From an uncultured Leptospirales bacterium (GTDB lineage Bacteria > Spirochaetota > UBA4802 > UBA5550): a stretch of DNA of 64,000 nucleotides. Location: positions 3,398-67,397 of the forward strand of contig CAZEJW010000004.1 in NCBI GenBank assembly GCA_964512685.1, written 5' to 3'. The translations under genes were made by a program, and so were the position numbers. This document shows positions 17,373 to 36,074 of the stretch, one piece after another. Each line of letters begins with the position of its first letter. Position 1 is the stretch's first letter. The notes under the pieces are model-generated. The model saw only the letters and a program-made list of their open reading frames with translations, did no database searches and was not told the origin of the DNA.

Positions 17373-17445
17373 GCCAGCTTAGCTCAGTTGGTAGAGCATG
17401 TCACTCGTAATGACAAGGCCGCCGGTTCGATTCCGGCAGCTGGCT
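17373..17445 (+). tRNA. tRNA-Thr (anticodon CGU)
   Basis: Folded by hand into a cloverleaf: acceptor gccagct/agctggc, D-arm gctc/gagc, anticodon stem tgtca/tgaca with loop ctCGTaa, T-arm gccgg-ttcgatt-ccggc. No encoded CCA. Confidence 0.92.
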
Positions 17446-17504
17446 CATGCTGAGGGAAATTTCTAAATTTTTTTGAAAAAAAATAATAATAATGACTATT
17501 TCTG

Positions 17505-17534
17505 TTGACAGGTTTTATGTAATGGAATTATATG
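17505..17534 (+). promoter_or_regulatory. sigma-70-like promoter for the 5S gene (TTGACA, 17-18 nt spacer, TTATAT/TATATG)
   Basis: Perfect -35 at 17505-17510, with an AT-rich -10 candidate at 17528-17534, about 25 nt before the 5S 5' end. Confidence 0.45.
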
Positions 17535-17560
17535 TCATTCAATAACAGAGAAAATAATTT

Positions 17561-17679
<119 letters not shown>

Positions 17680-22882: not shown

Positions 22883-24145
22883 TTACTTTGGTCTGAGCAT
22901 CTCAATGTATGCCTCAATCCGAGTTCTCATCTGCTCGATATCCTCAGGATTATATTCTGTCTCGAGTCTGAGAACCGGAATGTTGTATTTCTTGAGAAGA
23001 TTATTTACACGTGGCAGCTCATAGTCATAAACAATGCAACCTTTAAGAACATGATATAACACACCATCAATTCTATAGTCCTCTATAATAGTTTTCAACC
23101 TGTGAAGTCTGTCTTCGTTGGGAGAAAACGTAGGGCAGACGCAGGGCATCATATATCTTGCAGCAAGGGCAGAAATGATTTCATTGTCGGATTTTTCGCT
23201 CATCCCCACCGGATCATATAGCAAACGATCTCCGGTGCATGATTCATCTATAACTGTTATCCCGCCCATCTCCTCTATAAGATTGTAAACCTTCCAGTTC
23301 GGGAAAATGGATGGCGAACCTGCAAGCAAAATTCTGGGAGACTCTGTATCAAAAATTGTTACATTCTTATCGAGTCTTTCTTCAAGTTCATCGTTTAGTT
23401 TAGACATTGCTTTTGTCCATTCCTGGGGAGCGCAGAACGAATAAGAGTTAACTGCAAGTGCCGCTTCGCGTCCGGAAATAAGGGGCTTGCTTGATTTTCT
23501 TATTTCAAGAAGTCTTGCTGCTTCTTTTTGTGCTTCTGCAATCATCCTGATCGATGATAAAACTTTTTTTTTGGTGATTTTTTGACCTGTAAGTTCCTCG
23601 AGTTTTTTTCTGAGTACTTTTATCTGTTCAACCCAGATTCTTCTTGTAAAGTCAGTTTCTTTGACATGGGGAACTTCGAGGGTCCATACATTTTTATATT
23701 TTGAAATTTCTTCTCCAAGTTTTCTTATCGAATCACATGTTGTTGGAACAATTACAGTTTCACATTCTTCATAAGGTATAAGTATCTCTCCGGCAGTTAA
23801 TCCAAGTGATGATTTTGCAACCAGACATGAATCTCTCGGTATCATTTCTTCGCCGATAGTTGAACTCTCATAGCATCCGGCAGAAAGTTTTACCGGTACT
23901 GCTCCTGCTGCATAGATTAATTCCTCGGGAACCATCATGCAGTATATACCAATCTTTTTTCTTTCGCATATTTCTGCCGGTAATTTGTTTTTGACAAAAA
24001 CAGATCTCATTAAATCTATAAAGTAGTTAAGTGATTTAGGTATATTTTCAGTTTCTTCAATAGAGCTTAGCTCTCGTTCGGCAGATAGTGCGATACGTTT
24101 TCTCAATTGTTCTCTTTGCTTAACTAAACGGTTGTCTGTATTCAT
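22883..24145 (-). CDS. 2-hydroxyacyl-CoA dehydratase / BcrC-HgdB family Fe-S protein (possibly a double-cubane-cluster protein)
   Basis: 420 aa. 'VIVPTTCDSIRKLGE', 'PCVCPTF', 'IDGVLYHVLKGCIVYDYE' and many conserved-looking Cys residues. The size fits stand-alone DCCP-type proteins. Confidence 0.7.
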   Translation of the reverse strand: MNTDNRLVKQREQLRKRIALSAERELSSIEETENIPKSLNYFIDLMRSVFVKNKLPAEICERKKIGIYCMMVPEELIYAAGAVPVKLSAGCYESSTIGEEMIPRDSCLVAKSSLGLTAGEILIPYEECETVIVPTTCDSIRKLGEEISKYKNVWTLEVPHVKETDFTRRIWVEQIKVLRKKLEELTGQKITKKKVLSSIRMIAEAQKEAARLLEIRKSSKPLISGREAALAVNSYSFCAPQEWTKAMSKLNDELEERLDKNVTIFDTESPRILLAGSPSIFPNWKVYNLIEEMGGITVIDESCTGDRLLYDPVGMSEKSDNEIISALAARYMMPCVCPTFSPNEDRLHRLKTIIEDYRIDGVLYHVLKGCIVYDYELPRVNNLLKKYNIPVLRLETEYNPEDIEQMRTRIEAYIEMLRPK

Positions 24146-24151
24146 TTTTTT

Positions 24152-25075
24152 TTACCCTTTGAATTCTTTCTGCTCTTTACTGAATCTGTTTCTTTTCGAT
24201 TTATATATTGTTTTACCCAGATATGTTGCATAGAGGGCATCGTCTTCTGGACAGAACTCTATACAACGCAGGCAGTAAATACAGTCAGGGAAAAGAACGT
24301 CACTGTTATTTCTCTCTTCAAATACTTCCTGTATTTCCATAGGACAAACATTGTAGCAAATGCCACATCTTGTGCACCTGTCTGGATTTTTTTTCAATTT
24401 TGCAAAACCGATTTTGTCATAAAACGAAATAAGTAGTGACATTGGACAATAGCAGCAAAAAAATCTTCTTTTAAAAAAAGAGCCAACAATTGTCAGGGAT
24501 GTTATAAGTGCTCCAAGGACAGACATGACAAGTGCAGTAGTTGTACTGAAGTCAACACCTACTCTTTCAGGTGTCCCTCCTATTATAGGCATTATGTAAC
24601 GGGCCGGGCAAAGAGAACAAAAAGGTGTTCGCATATCTCTTGCTATTTCGGGTGCAAAAAAAGGATAAGCAACCCAGAAAGGAATTGCAATTATAAGAAA
24701 AATCCATTTAAGAGAACTCAATCCTCTTCTCAGTCCGGATGGAAATCTGATATAATTAATGCCAATCTTTTTTCTCATCCAGTCCATGCAGTCGTGAAGG
24801 AATCCCAGAGGGCAGAACCATCCGCACCATACAGGACCAAGCATTATAACCAGCAATGAAAAGAGGAAAAAAGTCAAAGCAAACTCTGTCCAGAGTTCGC
24901 GCTGAATTGTATCCTGTAAAGTGTAAAGATAACATATTCCTCCGATTTTTTGTCCAGTGAAGTTACATGAAAACGTAGGAAGAAAATTACCAAGGTAGAG
25001 ACCGTATAATCCTCCAAAAGTCAGTAAGAAAAATGAAACAGTCATTATAATCCATCTAAGTCTTGCCAGTGTCAT
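24152..25075 (-). CDS. membrane-bound polyferredoxin, NapH/MauN-like
   Basis: Start taken at ATG 25075, 1 nt after the upstream stop. TM segments with 'CGWFCPLGF' and 'CSLCPARY', plus two 4Fe-4S motifs 'CTRCGICYNVCP' and 'CIYCLRCIEFCP'. Confidence 0.75.
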   Translation of the reverse strand: MTLARLRWIIMTVSFFLLTFGGLYGLYLGNFLPTFSCNFTGQKIGGICYLYTLQDTIQRELWTEFALTFFLFSLLVIMLGPVWCGWFCPLGFLHDCMDWMRKKIGINYIRFPSGLRRGLSSLKWIFLIIAIPFWVAYPFFAPEIARDMRTPFCSLCPARYIMPIIGGTPERVGVDFSTTTALVMSVLGALITSLTIVGSFFKRRFFCCYCPMSLLISFYDKIGFAKLKKNPDRCTRCGICYNVCPMEIQEVFEERNNSDVLFPDCIYCLRCIEFCPEDDALYATYLGKTIYKSKRNRFSKEQKEFKG

Positions 25076-25076
25076 G

Positions 25077-25460
25077 TTATTTCCATATGTTATTTTTTGT
25101 AAAAATAGATGTGCTGATTTTATCTCTTCGATATTTAATGAAGAATCTAATAAGAGCAATCAAAATGATTATTCCGGTGATGTTTATTCCCCATGAAAGG
25201 AGAATCCCTTCGTATGATCTGTATTCCGGCCAGGGTGGATCCACTATCATCTGAAGCGTTGCGACATGAATTGTTTTATTGTCAGGATGTTCTGCGATAT
25301 ATAAATATTTTTCGAATGAGTATTCTTTATTTCTTCCTTCAAGTGGTACTGATGTAAATTTGCCATTCTTATCAGTTTCCAATTGTTTTTGCCATTTATT
25401 TTCAGTTAGGATCGTTATTTTACATCCAGGCAAAGGTTTTCCTTTATAAGTCACCATCAT
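25077..25460 (-). CDS. beta-sandwich (DUF4198 / carboxypeptidase-regulatory-like) protein with a C-terminal TM anchor; the coding frame stays open upstream to 25631
   Basis: 127 aa from ATG 25460. 'GKPLPGCKITILTE...ETDKNGKFTS' and a C-terminal TM followed by 'KYRRDK'. The 57 codons upstream are stop-free and in frame with the TGA of the preceding gene. Confidence 0.45.
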   Translation of the reverse strand: MMVTYKGKPLPGCKITILTENKWQKQLETDKNGKFTSVPLEGRNKEYSFEKYLYIAEHPDNKTIHVATLQMIVDPPWPEYRSYEGILLSWGINITGIIILIALIRFFIKYRRDKISTSIFTKNNIWK

Positions 25461-25631
25461 ATCATATTCCCTGTGTGAAATCTGGATAGAACCAATGTAG
25501 CGTGATGCTGATGCAGGGGTTATTTCCAGGCCGATGTTTGGCAGAACAAAGGAAGGATTTTCGATTCGTTCAGGATTACCGTTTTTGTAATGTGCAAATA
25601 TAATTTTAGGATAAAATATTTTTGAGCCTGT

Positions 25632-26447
25632 TCATGATCTTCTTTTTCCCGGTATGTAATAAAGGACCATAAGAAAAATTACAATCCCAAGTCCAATTAT
25701 TATGAAAAAGAAACCAGGATCATATGTTTCAAAGATAAAGACCTGTGGATTAATATCATTGCTTTTTTTTACTTCGGATCGATTGCAGACTGTTGTAGTT
25801 TGATTTTCTTTTTTCGTTTTATTTCTTTTTTCAATCTCGACATGTAGAAATCTGCCTGCAACAAACAGAGGATTCATATAACTGAGTTTGTATTGATTTG
25901 ATTTTTCTGAAAGTTGCAAACTACATTGTCTTACGTGTCCCTTCATTGATGAATGTTCTGGATATATCTCAAAGACTATATCTTCAACTTTAAATAGATG
26001 AGATTCTATTTCTATAATTTTTCCTTTTTCAATCGGTATTCTTTTATGTTCTGCTATAGTGAATGTGAAGAAATGTCCTGTCAGTATTATAATAAAAAGT
26101 AAATGGACTGCTGAAGGAATTACAAGTTTAAAAAATGTACCCTGGAAATTTTTCCTTTTTTTAATAAGGAACTTTAATCGGTTAATTGTACATACTATTG
26201 TATTAACAGTCAGCAGCGAAAGTACTATGTAAAGCATAATGACCCACCAGGTCATTGATGGTGAGCTGATATTATCCGATAACCATTTTTGAAATGGGAC
26301 AACATCCATCTTTTCATAGTATTTATAAAACCTGTATGAATACAATGATCCTGTAATAAAAAGTGCTGTCGCGGAAATCAATAGCCAATAAGTCAGTTTT
26401 ACACTACCAAGGAAATCATGTATCCTTTTCATATTATACCTCTGCAA
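25632..26447 (-). CDS. short ResB/Ccs1-like membrane protein
   Basis: 271 aa. N-terminus 'FLGSVKLTYWLLISATALF', 4 predicted TM segments, His-containing TM 'SAVHLLFIIILTGHFF', and a ~120-aa external loop. It is shorter than canonical ResB. Confidence 0.5.
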   Translation of the reverse strand: MQRYNMKRIHDFLGSVKLTYWLLISATALFITGSLYSYRFYKYYEKMDVVPFQKWLSDNISSPSMTWWVIMLYIVLSLLTVNTIVCTINRLKFLIKKRKNFQGTFFKLVIPSAVHLLFIIILTGHFFTFTIAEHKRIPIEKGKIIEIESHLFKVEDIVFEIYPEHSSMKGHVRQCSLQLSEKSNQYKLSYMNPLFVAGRFLHVEIEKRNKTKKENQTTTVCNRSEVKKSNDINPQVFIFETYDPGFFFIIIGLGIVIFLMVLYYIPGKRRS

Positions 26448-27180
26448 TAAGTTTCAGTAAATTTCCTGCTGGTGCAGCAAAGCCAAAAAACAAAAGAATC
26501 AAACCTCCAATTGCTGCATAACCTGCTCTTGACCTCAGGTTCCACGATTGCATGTAAACAAGATGAATGTAGCATGCATAAAAGCACCATATCGCAGCTG
26601 ACTGCATATGAACATATACCCATTGAAATGTCATAGCCCATCCTAAAAAACACCAGACAGCTCCGGTTACCTGCCCCGCAGTGTGCATTATAAAGCCCGT
26701 TATGAGGAGTGTGTGAAAATTTACGGATTCCTCTCTGTTGAAAAAGTATAAGAGTCCATACCATGCTCCCAGGTAAAAGCATGCATGGCCGAATACTATA
26801 GTTATGTGGAAAAGGGTTGACCATATTGAAATTTTGTTTGGTCCGAGTACTCCTGGTGCTGAAGATTCAAGAAGTGCGATTGCATAAAAAAAACAGGGAA
26901 GAATAACTGCTGATTCGGCATTCGATTCTTTCTGTCTGGTTACTATATAGATAATAATAATTGATATAAAGAATGGCAGGAGGTGAACAGCTGTCAGGAA
27001 GTGAGGAAACATGAATTCACCGCTTGAAAAGCCTCTTAATAATAAATAAAAAAAATTTAATACAGCTGCAAGAATCAGAAATAATTTTGTTCCTCTGCTT
27101 CGGTTGAGGATGTGCAAACAAAGCGATAAAAGGTATGTAATTGCGGTTGAATAGAGCAGCGCGGTGTTGGACGAGATCAT
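26434..27180 (-). CDS. CcsA/HemX-type 'cytochrome c assembly' family membrane protein with a degenerate WWD motif
   Basis: 248 aa, about 8 TM segments. Trp-rich 'GAVWCFLGWAMTFQWVYVHMQSAAIW' and flanking His residues. 14-nt overlap with the ResB-like gene. Confidence 0.55.
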   Translation of the reverse strand: MISSNTALLYSTAITYLLSLCLHILNRSRGTKLFLILAAVLNFFYLLLRGFSSGEFMFPHFLTAVHLLPFFISIIIIYIVTRQKESNAESAVILPCFFYAIALLESSAPGVLGPNKISIWSTLFHITIVFGHACFYLGAWYGLLYFFNREESVNFHTLLITGFIMHTAGQVTGAVWCFLGWAMTFQWVYVHMQSAAIWCFYACYIHLVYMQSWNLRSRAGYAAIGGLILLFFGFAAPAGNLLKLIAEV

Positions 27181-27262
27181 TATATTACCTCATATGTATA
27201 TTTTATAAAAGGATTACGTTGTATGAAATAATTTATAAATATATCCAGTCAATATAAATTAA

Positions 27263-27309
27263 TATTTTGTAGTATTTTGTAGTAATGATTTGTTCTGAAA
27301 ATTTTGTAG
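27263..27309 (+). repeat. three copies of 'ATTTTGTAG' (two in exact 10-bp tandem 'tattttgtag' x2, a third 27 nt downstream)
   Basis: Read directly: 27263-27272, 27273-27282 and 27300-27309, just upstream of a 32-codon sORF. Confidence 0.8.
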
Positions 27310-27978
27310 GAATTTTCCTATGAAGAAGTTATTTCTTTATAGTTGGAAAGATAACATATATTATCTCAGTTTTTTTATGACATTTCCCATTCCCGTTGTT
27401 TGGAGTGGAGGAAATTGATTCAATATTAAACAAGATTAAGATGAGGAACAGTTTATAGAGCAGAAGTTTTTTTCAGACTGTAGGAAATCTGGGTGTAGGT
27501 TCCGGGGGGAAATTATTTTCTGTTGTAATAATTTTATGAATGCCAGACTTAACAGGTTTTGGTTTTGTATCGATATTTTATTTTTAGTACAATATTTATT
27601 TTCTTTGTTTAAGAAGAAATTGTCTTAAAGAAAATTTCTTTTACGTTCAAGACAAAATTGACAGGATTTATTTTTTATACAGTTATTGACTTATCATATG
27701 ATATATATATTTATTGAAACAACAAAGAAGCAGAAATTATGAATTACTGTTATTGTTATAAATTCTTACAGATACAGTGAGATCGAAAACCTTGAACAAG
27801 GGAATCTCGGTAAATTAATGTTTTCACTTTCCCTTCTGGGTATAACCTCAGATGAAATTATGAGTTTTTATCTGTAATCTTTAGAGGTACCCATGATTTT
27901 GTAAGTTAAGCTTATATACTATTTCTAAATTGTCCTGATAATATATGATCAGGTTTTACGATCTCCCTCAATTATCCT

Positions 27979-28023
27979 CCCAGGAATCCCTCCATGCCAG
28001 TGGAGGGATCTGGGATTTTTTTT
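27979..28023 (+). terminator. strong intrinsic terminator with no annotated gene upstream
   Basis: Stem cccag(ga)atccctcca - tgccag - tggagggat ctggg, followed by 'attttttttg'. It is + strand specific. Confidence 0.8.
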
Positions 28024-28080
28024 GCCAATTTATAAAGAAGTAATTCAATATTTTTATTCGTATTTATTCCAAACATATTC

Positions 28081-28157
28081 AGTATTTTTTCCTAAAAATA
28101 CTTTTTGGCGCAAATGAAAGAATATAATTATCACCGCCGGTGATAATAGAGTTTTTT
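28081..28157 (+). terminator. two further hairpin plus T-run elements
   Basis: Both read directly. First: agtattttt/aaaaatact at 28081-28102, then tttt. Second: a 21-bp palindrome attatcacc-gcc-ggtgataat at 28127-28147, then tttttt at 28152-28157. The second could equally be a protein-binding palindrome. Confidence 0.45.
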
Positions 28158-28167
28158 CTTCTGCAAC

Positions 28168-28374
28168 AAAGTTTAGGAATAAACACTGAAACTTGTTCAT
28201 TTTAGTGCAAAAAAAGTTTTAAGTAAACTCTGTTTTTTTATTGTAAATATTATGCATGGTAATTATCACGCCTTTTATTATAAAAAATATGAATTTCAGC
28301 ATATATTCTTAAAAATTTTTTTTGTATATACAGAGAATATTTAAACTCTAATAAAGTTTAGGAATAATCGCTGA
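28168..28374 (+). repeat. direct repeat 'AAAGTTTAGGAATAA.C.CTGA' (28168-28189 and 28353-28374)
   Basis: 15 identical nt plus a conserved tail, 185 bp apart. The second copy ends 26 nt before the ankyrin gene ATG. Confidence 0.75.
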
Positions 28375-28399
28375 CGAAAAAAATAAAAGAGGCCAAACA

Positions 28400-29227
28400 A
28401 TGAAAAGAATAAGTATTGTTTTGATTTCGTTAGTTTTGTTTTATTCATCTCTTCTTATTGCAGGCGAATCGTCCGGAAAAGTAACAAACCTCAACATGGA
28501 ATTGATTGAAGCTGTAAAAAAATCCGATTTGCCGGCAGTAAAAAAGTTAATCCGGAAAGGAGCGGATGTCAACAGCACAGATAAGACAGTTAAAGAAGAG
28601 GGGGATTTCGTTCAGCCAACTGCTTTAACTATTGCACTTCTCAGAAACGATACCAGGATGGCTCGTTATCTGCTTTCCAGAAAAGGCAAGTGGAGATATG
28701 ATACTTTACATAACTGTGCAATGAAAGGCTATATCAATGGCGTTAAACTTCTCGTTAAAGCCGGAGCGGATTATAACCGTTGTGATCTTGGTGGTGATCT
28801 TCCGGTAACTTATGCGGCCGACAATGGGCATGTTGAGATTGTAAAATATCTTTTATCATTAAAATCATCAACAGGTATGAATAGCCCTGAGCAATTGATG
28901 CTGAAAGCAAAAAACAATGCATTACAAAAGTATGGGATTGTCTATTCCGTAAAGGGAAAGTTTACAGGAGGAGAAAGATTATTTGAAAACGAATTTATAC
29001 TTCATTTTAAATCCGGAAGGAAAAAAATAAATTTTATAACTGATAATTTTAAAGGTGATCTTGGAAATTATGTTTTTTTTACTGAAAAGGATGGCGGATT
29101 TCTGTTTAATAAAAGACTCAGGTCAAATAATTTTACAGTCACGTATGGAGAAAAAAAGGCTGTTGATGAAAATACCGGAATTGAAAAGAAAGTAAAAAGG
29201 ATTATCAATGTAGAGCTTACCAGGTAG
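28400..29227 (+). CDS. secreted ankyrin-repeat protein with a non-ankyrin C-terminal domain
   Basis: 275 aa with a signal peptide. Repeats 'LIEAVKKSDLPAVKKLIRKGADVN' and 'AADNGHVEIVKYLLS'. Confidence 0.8.
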   Translation: MKRISIVLISLVLFYSSLLIAGESSGKVTNLNMELIEAVKKSDLPAVKKLIRKGADVNSTDKTVKEEGDFVQPTALTIALLRNDTRMARYLLSRKGKWRYDTLHNCAMKGYINGVKLLVKAGADYNRCDLGGDLPVTYAADNGHVEIVKYLLSLKSSTGMNSPEQLMLKAKNNALQKYGIVYSVKGKFTGGERLFENEFILHFKSGRKKINFITDNFKGDLGNYVFFTEKDGGFLFNKRLRSNNFTVTYGEKKAVDENTGIEKKVKRIINVELTR

Positions 29228-35612: not shown

Positions 35613-35849
35613 TAAAATACTCCTGTAAGGTAATTCAGCGGTAGAAAGTTCCGCCTTAAGCCTGTCAAATCCGCAATTAACTTAAAACTGATTGTAATTC
35701 AGGCAAGAAAATCGGTGGGTTATTAAAGCTTTTTCACAGCCATTAAATCATGCAGCCGGTTTGTGTCAATGACTATAAAGAAAATATAGTGTCAGTCCCG
35801 ATCTTTTTTTTATTGACACTATATATTTATTATTTCATCTGATTATATA

Positions 35850-35981
<132 letters not shown>

Positions 35982-36074
35982 TGATTGCATCTGTTTCCCT
36001 TCAGAGGATTAACTGCGCAGATTATCATCTCATACCCTGAATATTGAAATAACCTAATATAACAGGGAGAAATT

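Follow-up and report, generated by a model that had tools for sequence, protein, structure and literature searches.

The subject of this work is a gap of 1219 nt, positions 27181-28399, in a 64-kb window of contig CAZEJW010000004.1 from an uncultured Leptospirales bacterium (the window is the whole stretch of DNA analysed, 64,000 nt, and all positions are counted in it). On its left lies the gene for a CcsA-like membrane protein (26434-27180, minus strand, 248 amino acids), the first of a minus-strand operon; on its right lies an ankyrin-repeat gene (28400-29227, plus strand). Between the two we find a unique AT-rich spacer, a decayed copy of a structured repeat (fam2), a weak hairpin, a putative intrinsic terminator and a nest of copies of another repeat (fam1). 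As argued below, the gap is probably an ordinary divergent non-coding spacer acting as a trap for miniature transposable elements of the inverted-repeat type (MITEs), plus one orphan terminator.

An original prediction, made from the letters alone, had described the region as an AT-rich island poor in open reading frames (ORFs). The absence of ORFs of 60 codons or more, on both strands, was borne out. Among the 2523 stretches of the genome without an ORF of at least 60 amino acids (contigs of at least 3 kb, 4.45 Mb in all), the gap ranks first by length, the runners-up being 1048, 983 and 823 nt long. Its largest ORF, of 48 amino acids on the minus strand (28054-28200), lies within a repeat copy. 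AT-richness is real as well (GC fraction 0.271 vs 0.394 for the genome), yet the gap stands only at the 16th percentile of ORF-free gaps of at least 150 nt (mean 0.317 +/- 0.049). Its low GC is thus ordinary intergenic composition and defines no island, whereas its ORF poverty is a true outlier. The other long ORF-free gaps of the genome contain no Rfam family; the two next-longest (C76:434-1481, 1048 nt, and C36:4686-5668, 983 nt) contain no fam1 copy either.

Copies of fam1 and fam2 in the gap

When the gap was compared with its own genome by BLAST, a sole segment matched, 28076-28190, at more than 40 places. The nhmmer profile of this repeat, fam1, detects 159 non-overlapping loci in the genome, 114 of them near full length. 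The consensus is 121 nt long (CAGTATTTATTCCTAAAAATACTTTTTAGTGCAAATGGAAGAATATTATTATCCCCGCCGCCTTCGGCGGCGGGGATAATAGAGTTTTTTCTTCTGCAATAAAGTTTAGGAATAAACACTG). Terminal inverted repeats of 17 bp (CAGTRTTTATTCCTAAA) are found at both ends of the consensus and in the window copy, with sharp boundaries and the end motif CAGTRTTTATTCC, and in the centre a GC hairpin capped by a UUCG loop precedes a T-run. A 9-bp target duplication accompanies the element: of the 67 copies having both ends, 33 show it perfectly (9/9) and 48 at 7/9 or better, while no control 9-mer scores above 6/9. The targets, rich in AT, have A as their first and T as their ninth base (A-N7-T).

Nearly all full-length copies (115/118) are intergenic. 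Their numbers in tandem, divergent and convergent gaps (60/41/7) match the share of intergenic bases in each class (53%/36%/10%), and no orientation bias is seen in tandem gene contexts (32 vs 28). Many copies are 95-100% identical to each other, which points to recent activity of the family. The terminal repeat is also frequent in a complete genome from another genus of the same family, with 161 + 151 matches compared to 3-4 for a control pattern.

By structural definition fam1 is a MITE: it is small, carries no transposase gene, ends in inverted repeats, duplicates its target and is dispersed in many copies. Compared with the published definition of these elements (Delihas 2011, PMC3184786), it shows every feature except a parent element. 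No pair of terminal repeats 0.7-3 kb apart encloses a transposase, an absence that is not proven in so fragmented an assembly. DDE_Tnp_1 elements of the same genome and of genome G012 are devoid of fam1 ends. ISAs1, with its CAG ends and 8-10-bp duplication, was considered as a partner and rejected, no ISAs1-family transposase being present in five genomes. Intact copies of fam1 and fam2 have no Rfam match.

The assembly comprises 343 contigs, and several of them end within fam1 copies (C80, C151, C159, C204, C49, C62). Breaks in the assembly are therefore caused in part by these MITEs.

In the gap itself, the best-preserved copy is a younger one of 109 nt at 28080-28188 (plus strand; nhmmer E = 4e-30, aligned to the consensus). 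Both of its terminal inverted repeats are intact and its central GC hairpin is 12 nt shorter, reduced to ATTATCACCGCCGGTGATAAT. The copy folds into one long hairpin (-33 kcal/mol, z = -6.2) and is flanked by a degenerate 9-bp duplication, AAACATATT (28071-28079) and AAACTTGTT (28189-28197). Around it lies what appears to be an older, degenerate copy on the same strand, whose 5′ end (GTATTTATTCC..., 28060-28079) continues as CATTTTAGTGCAAA at 28198-28212. When the young copy and one duplicated 9-mer were removed by script, the joined flanks, GTATTTATTCC-AAACATATT-CATTTTAGTGCAAA, matched profile positions 5-38 with E = 0.018, which is moderate evidence.

Further fam1 debris extends over 28296-28373 (plus strand). 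It is composed of a possible 5′ terminal repeat, TCAGCATATATTCTTAAAAAT (28296-28323), which is weak (E = 0.12), and a clear 3′ terminal repeat, AATAAAGTTTAGGAATAATCGCTG (28350-28373), which aligns with positions 90-124 of the profile (E = 3e-5 locally and 0.004 over the whole window) and stops 26 nt short of the ankyrin start codon. The segment 28060-28373 is best read as a nest of two or three fam1 copies, the younger inserted into the older.

This anatomy explains several features that had been listed separately. The 21-bp palindrome is present, and together with the hairpin and T-run at 28127-28147 it is the shortened centre of the young copy. The direct repeat, reported as 22 nt and of 22-25 nt here (28165-28189 and 28350-28374), consists of the 3′ terminal repeats of two fam1 copies.

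The 'structured segment' of the original prediction is also present, and its identity is that of a decayed fam2 copy at 27797-27894 (plus strand), recognized by nhmmer (E = 1e-16), by more sensitive BLAST and by alignment to the consensus. The three repeat matches in the gap are the only ones within the window. An intact fam2 element is 119 nt long (TATAAGGGAACCTCGATAAATTAATATTTGGACGTTCCCTTGTGGGTACAACATCTGATAAAATCAGGAGTTTTCATTTGTAATATTAATGAAACTCCTGATTTTTAGAGGTACCCATAA) and comprises a helix P1 (AAGGGAAC/GTTCCCTT) and a helix P2 (GGGYAC/GTRCCC) enclosing P3, a long hairpin with a U-run behind it. In the window copy an 18-nt internal deletion has taken away the 3′ half of P3, the inner hairpin. 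With the covariance model R1 this copy scores 55.4 bits (E = 2e-8), compared to 78-142 bits for intact copies.

In the genome studied, the fam2 profile gives 43 matches at E<=0.01, some of them partial or on both strands of one copy; C5:23726-23844 and C150:2593-2711 are examples, and loci L058-L097 are examples in other genomes. BLAST detects the family in 22 of 41 relatives. The covariance model finds it in 68/122 genomes and 31/50 genera of the order, often with at least 29 scored copies. The P3 stem varies among genomes with full compensation (GGAGTTT, GGTTTTT, GAATTTT, GTTTTTT, CCGCTTTC). In an alignment of 46 copies, which is model-fitted and therefore inflates the values somewhat, 89% of the structure cells are paired, compared to 41-48% with slid partners; again in the model-fitted alignment, changes on both sides occur in 21 of the 31 pairs and the covariation score is 0.273 vs 0.055-0.078.

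Dispersed and multi-copy like fam1, fam2 has sharp, conserved ends. These ends (TAAGGGAACCTCTA / TATGGGCACCTCTA) agree at about 12 of their 14-15 positions, like imperfect inverted repeats, and carry the motif GGGWACCTC. ATAA is found at both flanks almost invariably, either as a duplicated target or as part of the element; the flanks co-vary in just two copies.

We also observed a third dispersed repeat family, with about 34 BLAST matches (C43:27364-27465, C132:1-214, C45:5087-5215) and no copy in the gap. It starts with AAGGGAACCTCTAAAAATTATA... and shares the fam2 end motif, so that one transposase may move both families.

Flanking genes and the unique spacer

Homologues of the CcsA-like protein, 37-41% identical, contain PF01578, and in a set of 5.8 billion proteins the best one reaches only 41% identity. 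In the window, a ribosome-binding site, GAGGT (27188-27192, minus strand), lies 8 nt ahead of the ATG of this gene, and no gene precedes it on the same strand. The proposal that the gap holds the promoter of the minus-strand operon, along with its leader, is reasonable, and probably right. The genome has a paralogous second ccsA-like operon (C170:4097-5893), 28% identical to that of the window (22883-27180) and preceded by a gene for a lipoprotein-like protein of about 355 amino acids (~49-56% identity in relatives). The operon of the window is without this upstream gene and without a close orthologue anywhere.

On the other side, the ankyrin protein (Pfam Ank_2, Ank_4) starts with a hydrophobic segment resembling a signal peptide, and its gene has a ribosome-binding site, AAGAGG, at 28387-28392. 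No orthologue was found in 40 relatives, where matches reach 38% at most and cover ankyrin repeats only. Elsewhere in the window, 17373-17678 carries tRNA-Thr (CGT) and then a 5S rRNA; as Rfam detects no 23S rRNA in the window, the 5S gene is possibly unlinked. A flavin mononucleotide (FMN) riboswitch (127 bits) is found at 35846-35986 on the plus strand.

The left part of the gap, 27181-27796, is a unique AT-rich spacer of 616 nt (GC 0.255) in which no repeat family, ORF, Rfam or Pfam signal is detected. Its folds have z-scores from -2.1 to +1.3 against shuffles, both strands considered. It has no second copy in the genome and no match in the 40 relatives. The tandem 10-bp repeats that had been pointed out in this spacer are present and weak (Tandem Repeats Finder score 44): the motif TATTTTGTAG is repeated 2.2 times on the plus strand (27263-27284) and a third copy, ATTTTGTAG, follows 27 nt on, at 27301, the whole occupying 27263-27313. 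The exact tandem TTTTGTAG was tried as a regulon motif and rejected, since it has just one other occurrence in the genome.

The orphan terminator and alternative explanations

Two hairpins precede the fam1 nest. The first, at 27934-27953 (plus strand), is followed by UUUU and is unique in the genome. It is one of two additional hairpin/T-run elements that had been noted, and it is weak (-7.7 kcal/mol, z -2.2); the other is the fam1 centre described above. The second is the putative intrinsic terminator at 27978-28023 (plus strand). Originally placed at 27979-28023 and called strong and without a gene to terminate, it is confirmed on both counts. The stem (27978-28015) has 16 GC-rich bp, a 2-nt bulge and a GCCA loop, and is directly followed by U8 (28016-28023), with a folding energy of -26.9 kcal/mol (z = -4.2). 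It is one-directional, the minus strand having no U-run after the stem, unique in the genome, part of no repeat, and 6688 nt away from the nearest same-strand ORF end. Among the 116 strongest terminator-like sites that our own scan gave for the genome, its energy falls in the range from the 5th to the 25th percentile; 45 of these sites follow a same-strand ORF at a distance of 150 nt or less. None of the metagenome contigs searched contains the hairpin, and a sub-threshold Rfam match to Chlorobi-1 (18.9 vs 50 bits) corresponds to it only. This terminator is the one remaining feature that argues for plus-strand transcription in the gap.

Orphan terminators are a classic predictor of small RNA (sRNA) genes. 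It had been claimed that an independent plus-strand unit must exist here. On this view a dedicated sRNA of about 100-300 nt, or a micro-protein mRNA, would end at 27978-28023, maybe partly on the fam2 relic. The strength, direction, uniqueness and remote position of the terminator favour such a unit, as does the 336-nt upstream fold, which is better than that of shuffles (z = -4.1). This fold signal, however, is that of the fam2 relic and of the terminator, the unique parts having z > -2.2. Promoter-like sites in the gap are at chance level (13 vs 9.3 +/- 3.4 in shuffles). The scan of the window with Rfam gave no family at gathering threshold in the gap, where matches at E up to 10 were noise, and no tRNA or transfer-messenger RNA lies within it. 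Hydrophobic small ORFs exist as strings, as had been reported, but they have no paralogues, and the single one near the terminator passes through the terminator stem.

Conservation is also lacking: the gap has no homologous region in the 40 relatives and no similarity in phages, plasmids, metagenome contigs or viral contigs. Short-pattern matches in viral contigs were set aside as chance, with no profile match behind them. This is weak evidence against an sRNA, since no close relative exists, the nearest homologue of a flanking protein being the 41% identical one cited above. Four of the features cited for the claim (the structured segment, the palindrome, a hairpin/T-run and the direct repeat) belong to decayed repeat copies, three or four in number, so that a plus-strand unit does not follow from them and its necessity is unsupported. 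We regard a dedicated unit of this kind as possible, though on the unlikely side.

A related proposal takes fam2 itself as an RNA. The decayed copy would be the body of a lineage-specific sRNA ended by the orphan terminator, or fam2 would constitute a family of structured RNAs with a function throughout the order, or both. Compensatory changes maintain the three helices, a terminator-like hairpin among them, in 31 genera, which suggests that fam2 is possibly functional and not merely selfish; we nevertheless hold either version, or the two combined, to be doubtful.

The exceptional length of the gap could also mean that its unique parts are what is left of a gene since lost, or of a bigger mobile element now degraded, with the terminator as a fossil 3′ end. 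A candidate for such a loss comes from the relatives, where the gene for the protein of about 355 amino acids, with its lipoprotein-like signal, precedes the paralogous ccsA-like operon; it is missing here. Yet when eight of these upstream proteins were searched for in the gap by tblastn, the best E was 0.14, and the true orthologue (~49-56% identity) lies on contig C170. The ccsA-like loci of the relatives are orthologues of the C170 operon, and the gene therefore belongs to that operon. A six-frame Pfam scan reading through stops was empty. A hidden recoded ORF was also rejected, as reassignment of TGA or TAG opens no frame above 98 codons and only that of TAA, the most frequent stop of so AT-rich a sequence, does so. 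A fossil terminator, moreover, would be expected to decay along with its gene. We judge a lost gene or element improbable.

Alternatively, the plus strand from ~27700 to 28399 could belong to the ankyrin gene as a long, regulated 5′ leader, in which the terminator would serve as attenuator or expression platform and the MITEs would have come later. The fam2 relic, the terminator and the ankyrin gene do follow each other on one strand, and intact fam2 copies are often found 10-170 nt upstream of same-strand genes. We examined this cis-regulatory role of fam2 and rejected it: divergent gaps produce the same-strand rule automatically, in tandem ones 7 copies are co-oriented with the downstream gene and 6 anti-oriented when all matches are counted (6 to 0 with the best only), and the downstream genes are functionally unrelated. 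Neither an alternative anti-terminator pairing nor a known riboswitch was found in the gap, and the 376 nt from the terminator to the start codon are almost all MITE debris bearing its own terminator-like hairpin. A regulated leader is, in our view, very improbable.

Finally, a DNA-level element built on the 10-bp repeats, either a replication origin or a regulator-binding array, would suit an AT-rich, ORF-free region with helically phased 10-mers, but the cumulative GC skew climbs steadily along the whole contig without turning point, the gap contains no DnaA box, even with one mismatch allowed, and the exact tandem is nearly unique, which leaves this explanation a negligible chance.

Interpretation and comparison with known systems

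We thus come back to the ordinary divergent spacer acting as a MITE trap, with one orphan terminator, as the likely explanation of the gap. About a third of its length (~330-410 of 1219 nt) is repeat-derived. The mechanism would be the following. Since fam1 duplicates 9 bp of an AT-rich target and inserts nearly always between genes, spacers that are AT-rich and dispensable would gather copies and grow. The spacer between the minus-strand ccsA-like operon and the plus-strand ankyrin gene would have been enlarged in this way by repeated insertion, and its hairpins, palindrome and direct repeat would all be MITE anatomy, with the inverted repeats at the ends and, in the middle, the GC hairpin and its U-run.

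The repeat families, with their copy numbers, target duplications, boundaries and nesting, are demonstrated by the analysis, while promoter positions, the function of the terminator and any effect on expression are what we infer from sequence. The left spacer presumably holds the operon promoter and 5′ leader. The terminator may stop plus-strand transcription begun in the spacer short of the MITE nest and of the ankyrin gene, a role to which we give roughly even chances. If it does, the ankyrin promoter would lie downstream of 28023, inside MITE-derived DNA, where TTTAAA-17-AATAAT (28340-28368) is a candidate; this promoter is probably derived from a MITE.

Several observations weigh against such a reading. 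Once the repeats are removed, ~800 nt are left, still among the five longest gaps, and insertions therefore do not fully explain the gap length. For neither fam1 nor fam2 was an autonomous insertion sequence with matching ends found. The target duplication of the young copy is just 6/9, and the older fam1 pieces, the clear 3′ end excepted, have weak local E-values (0.018 and 0.12). A 16-bp GC-rich stem followed by U8 is, besides, unlikely to persist without selection in DNA of 27% GC, so that a functional plus-strand transcript in the gap is quite possible.

fam1 and fam2 are undescribed families of a well-known kind of repeat, abundant in an uncultured order of Spirochaetota, and the gap as such represents no novel type of element. 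The two families account for many 'structured' intergenic features in the order, in addition to breaks in the present assembly. They also call for caution when a region is read from its sequence only, since palindromes, hairpin/T-runs and direct repeats may all belong to one nested MITE. The orphan terminator marks a possible lineage-specific non-coding transcript, still a candidate; if true, an sRNA with a fam2 body would be a mobile repeat turned RNA gene. Like sRNA genes predicted from orphan terminators, the gap has a strong one-directional terminator in intergenic DNA without an upstream ORF. Unlike them, it offers neither an identifiable promoter nor conservation.

SPRITE of Streptococcus pneumoniae has been classed as 'Rho-independent terminator-like' (PMC3184786). 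SPRITE and RUP of S. pneumoniae, and ERIC/IRU of enterobacteria, are small dispersed intergenic repeats with a terminator-like core or a long imperfect hairpin, and the inner helix and U-run of fam2, as well as the GC hairpin of fam1 with its UUCG loop and T-run, look similar in kind to these cores. There is no sequence relationship between fam1 or fam2 and any of them. We know of no SPRITE, RUP, ERIC or IRU for which an order-wide three-helix architecture with compensatory changes, such as that of fam2, has been documented.

A close parallel to fam1 in general organization is provided by the Correia elements (CREE) of Neisseria: both are non-autonomous elements of 100-150 nt with inverted repeats and target duplications, present in tens to hundreds of intergenic copies and able to form long hairpins. 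Correia elements make a TA duplication, whereas that of fam1 is 9 bp long and AT-rich; the sequences are unrelated, the host of fam1 is an uncultured member of the Spirochaetota and no partner transposase was identified for it. Correia elements often lie beside gene starts and can donate promoters or terminators (PMC3184786).

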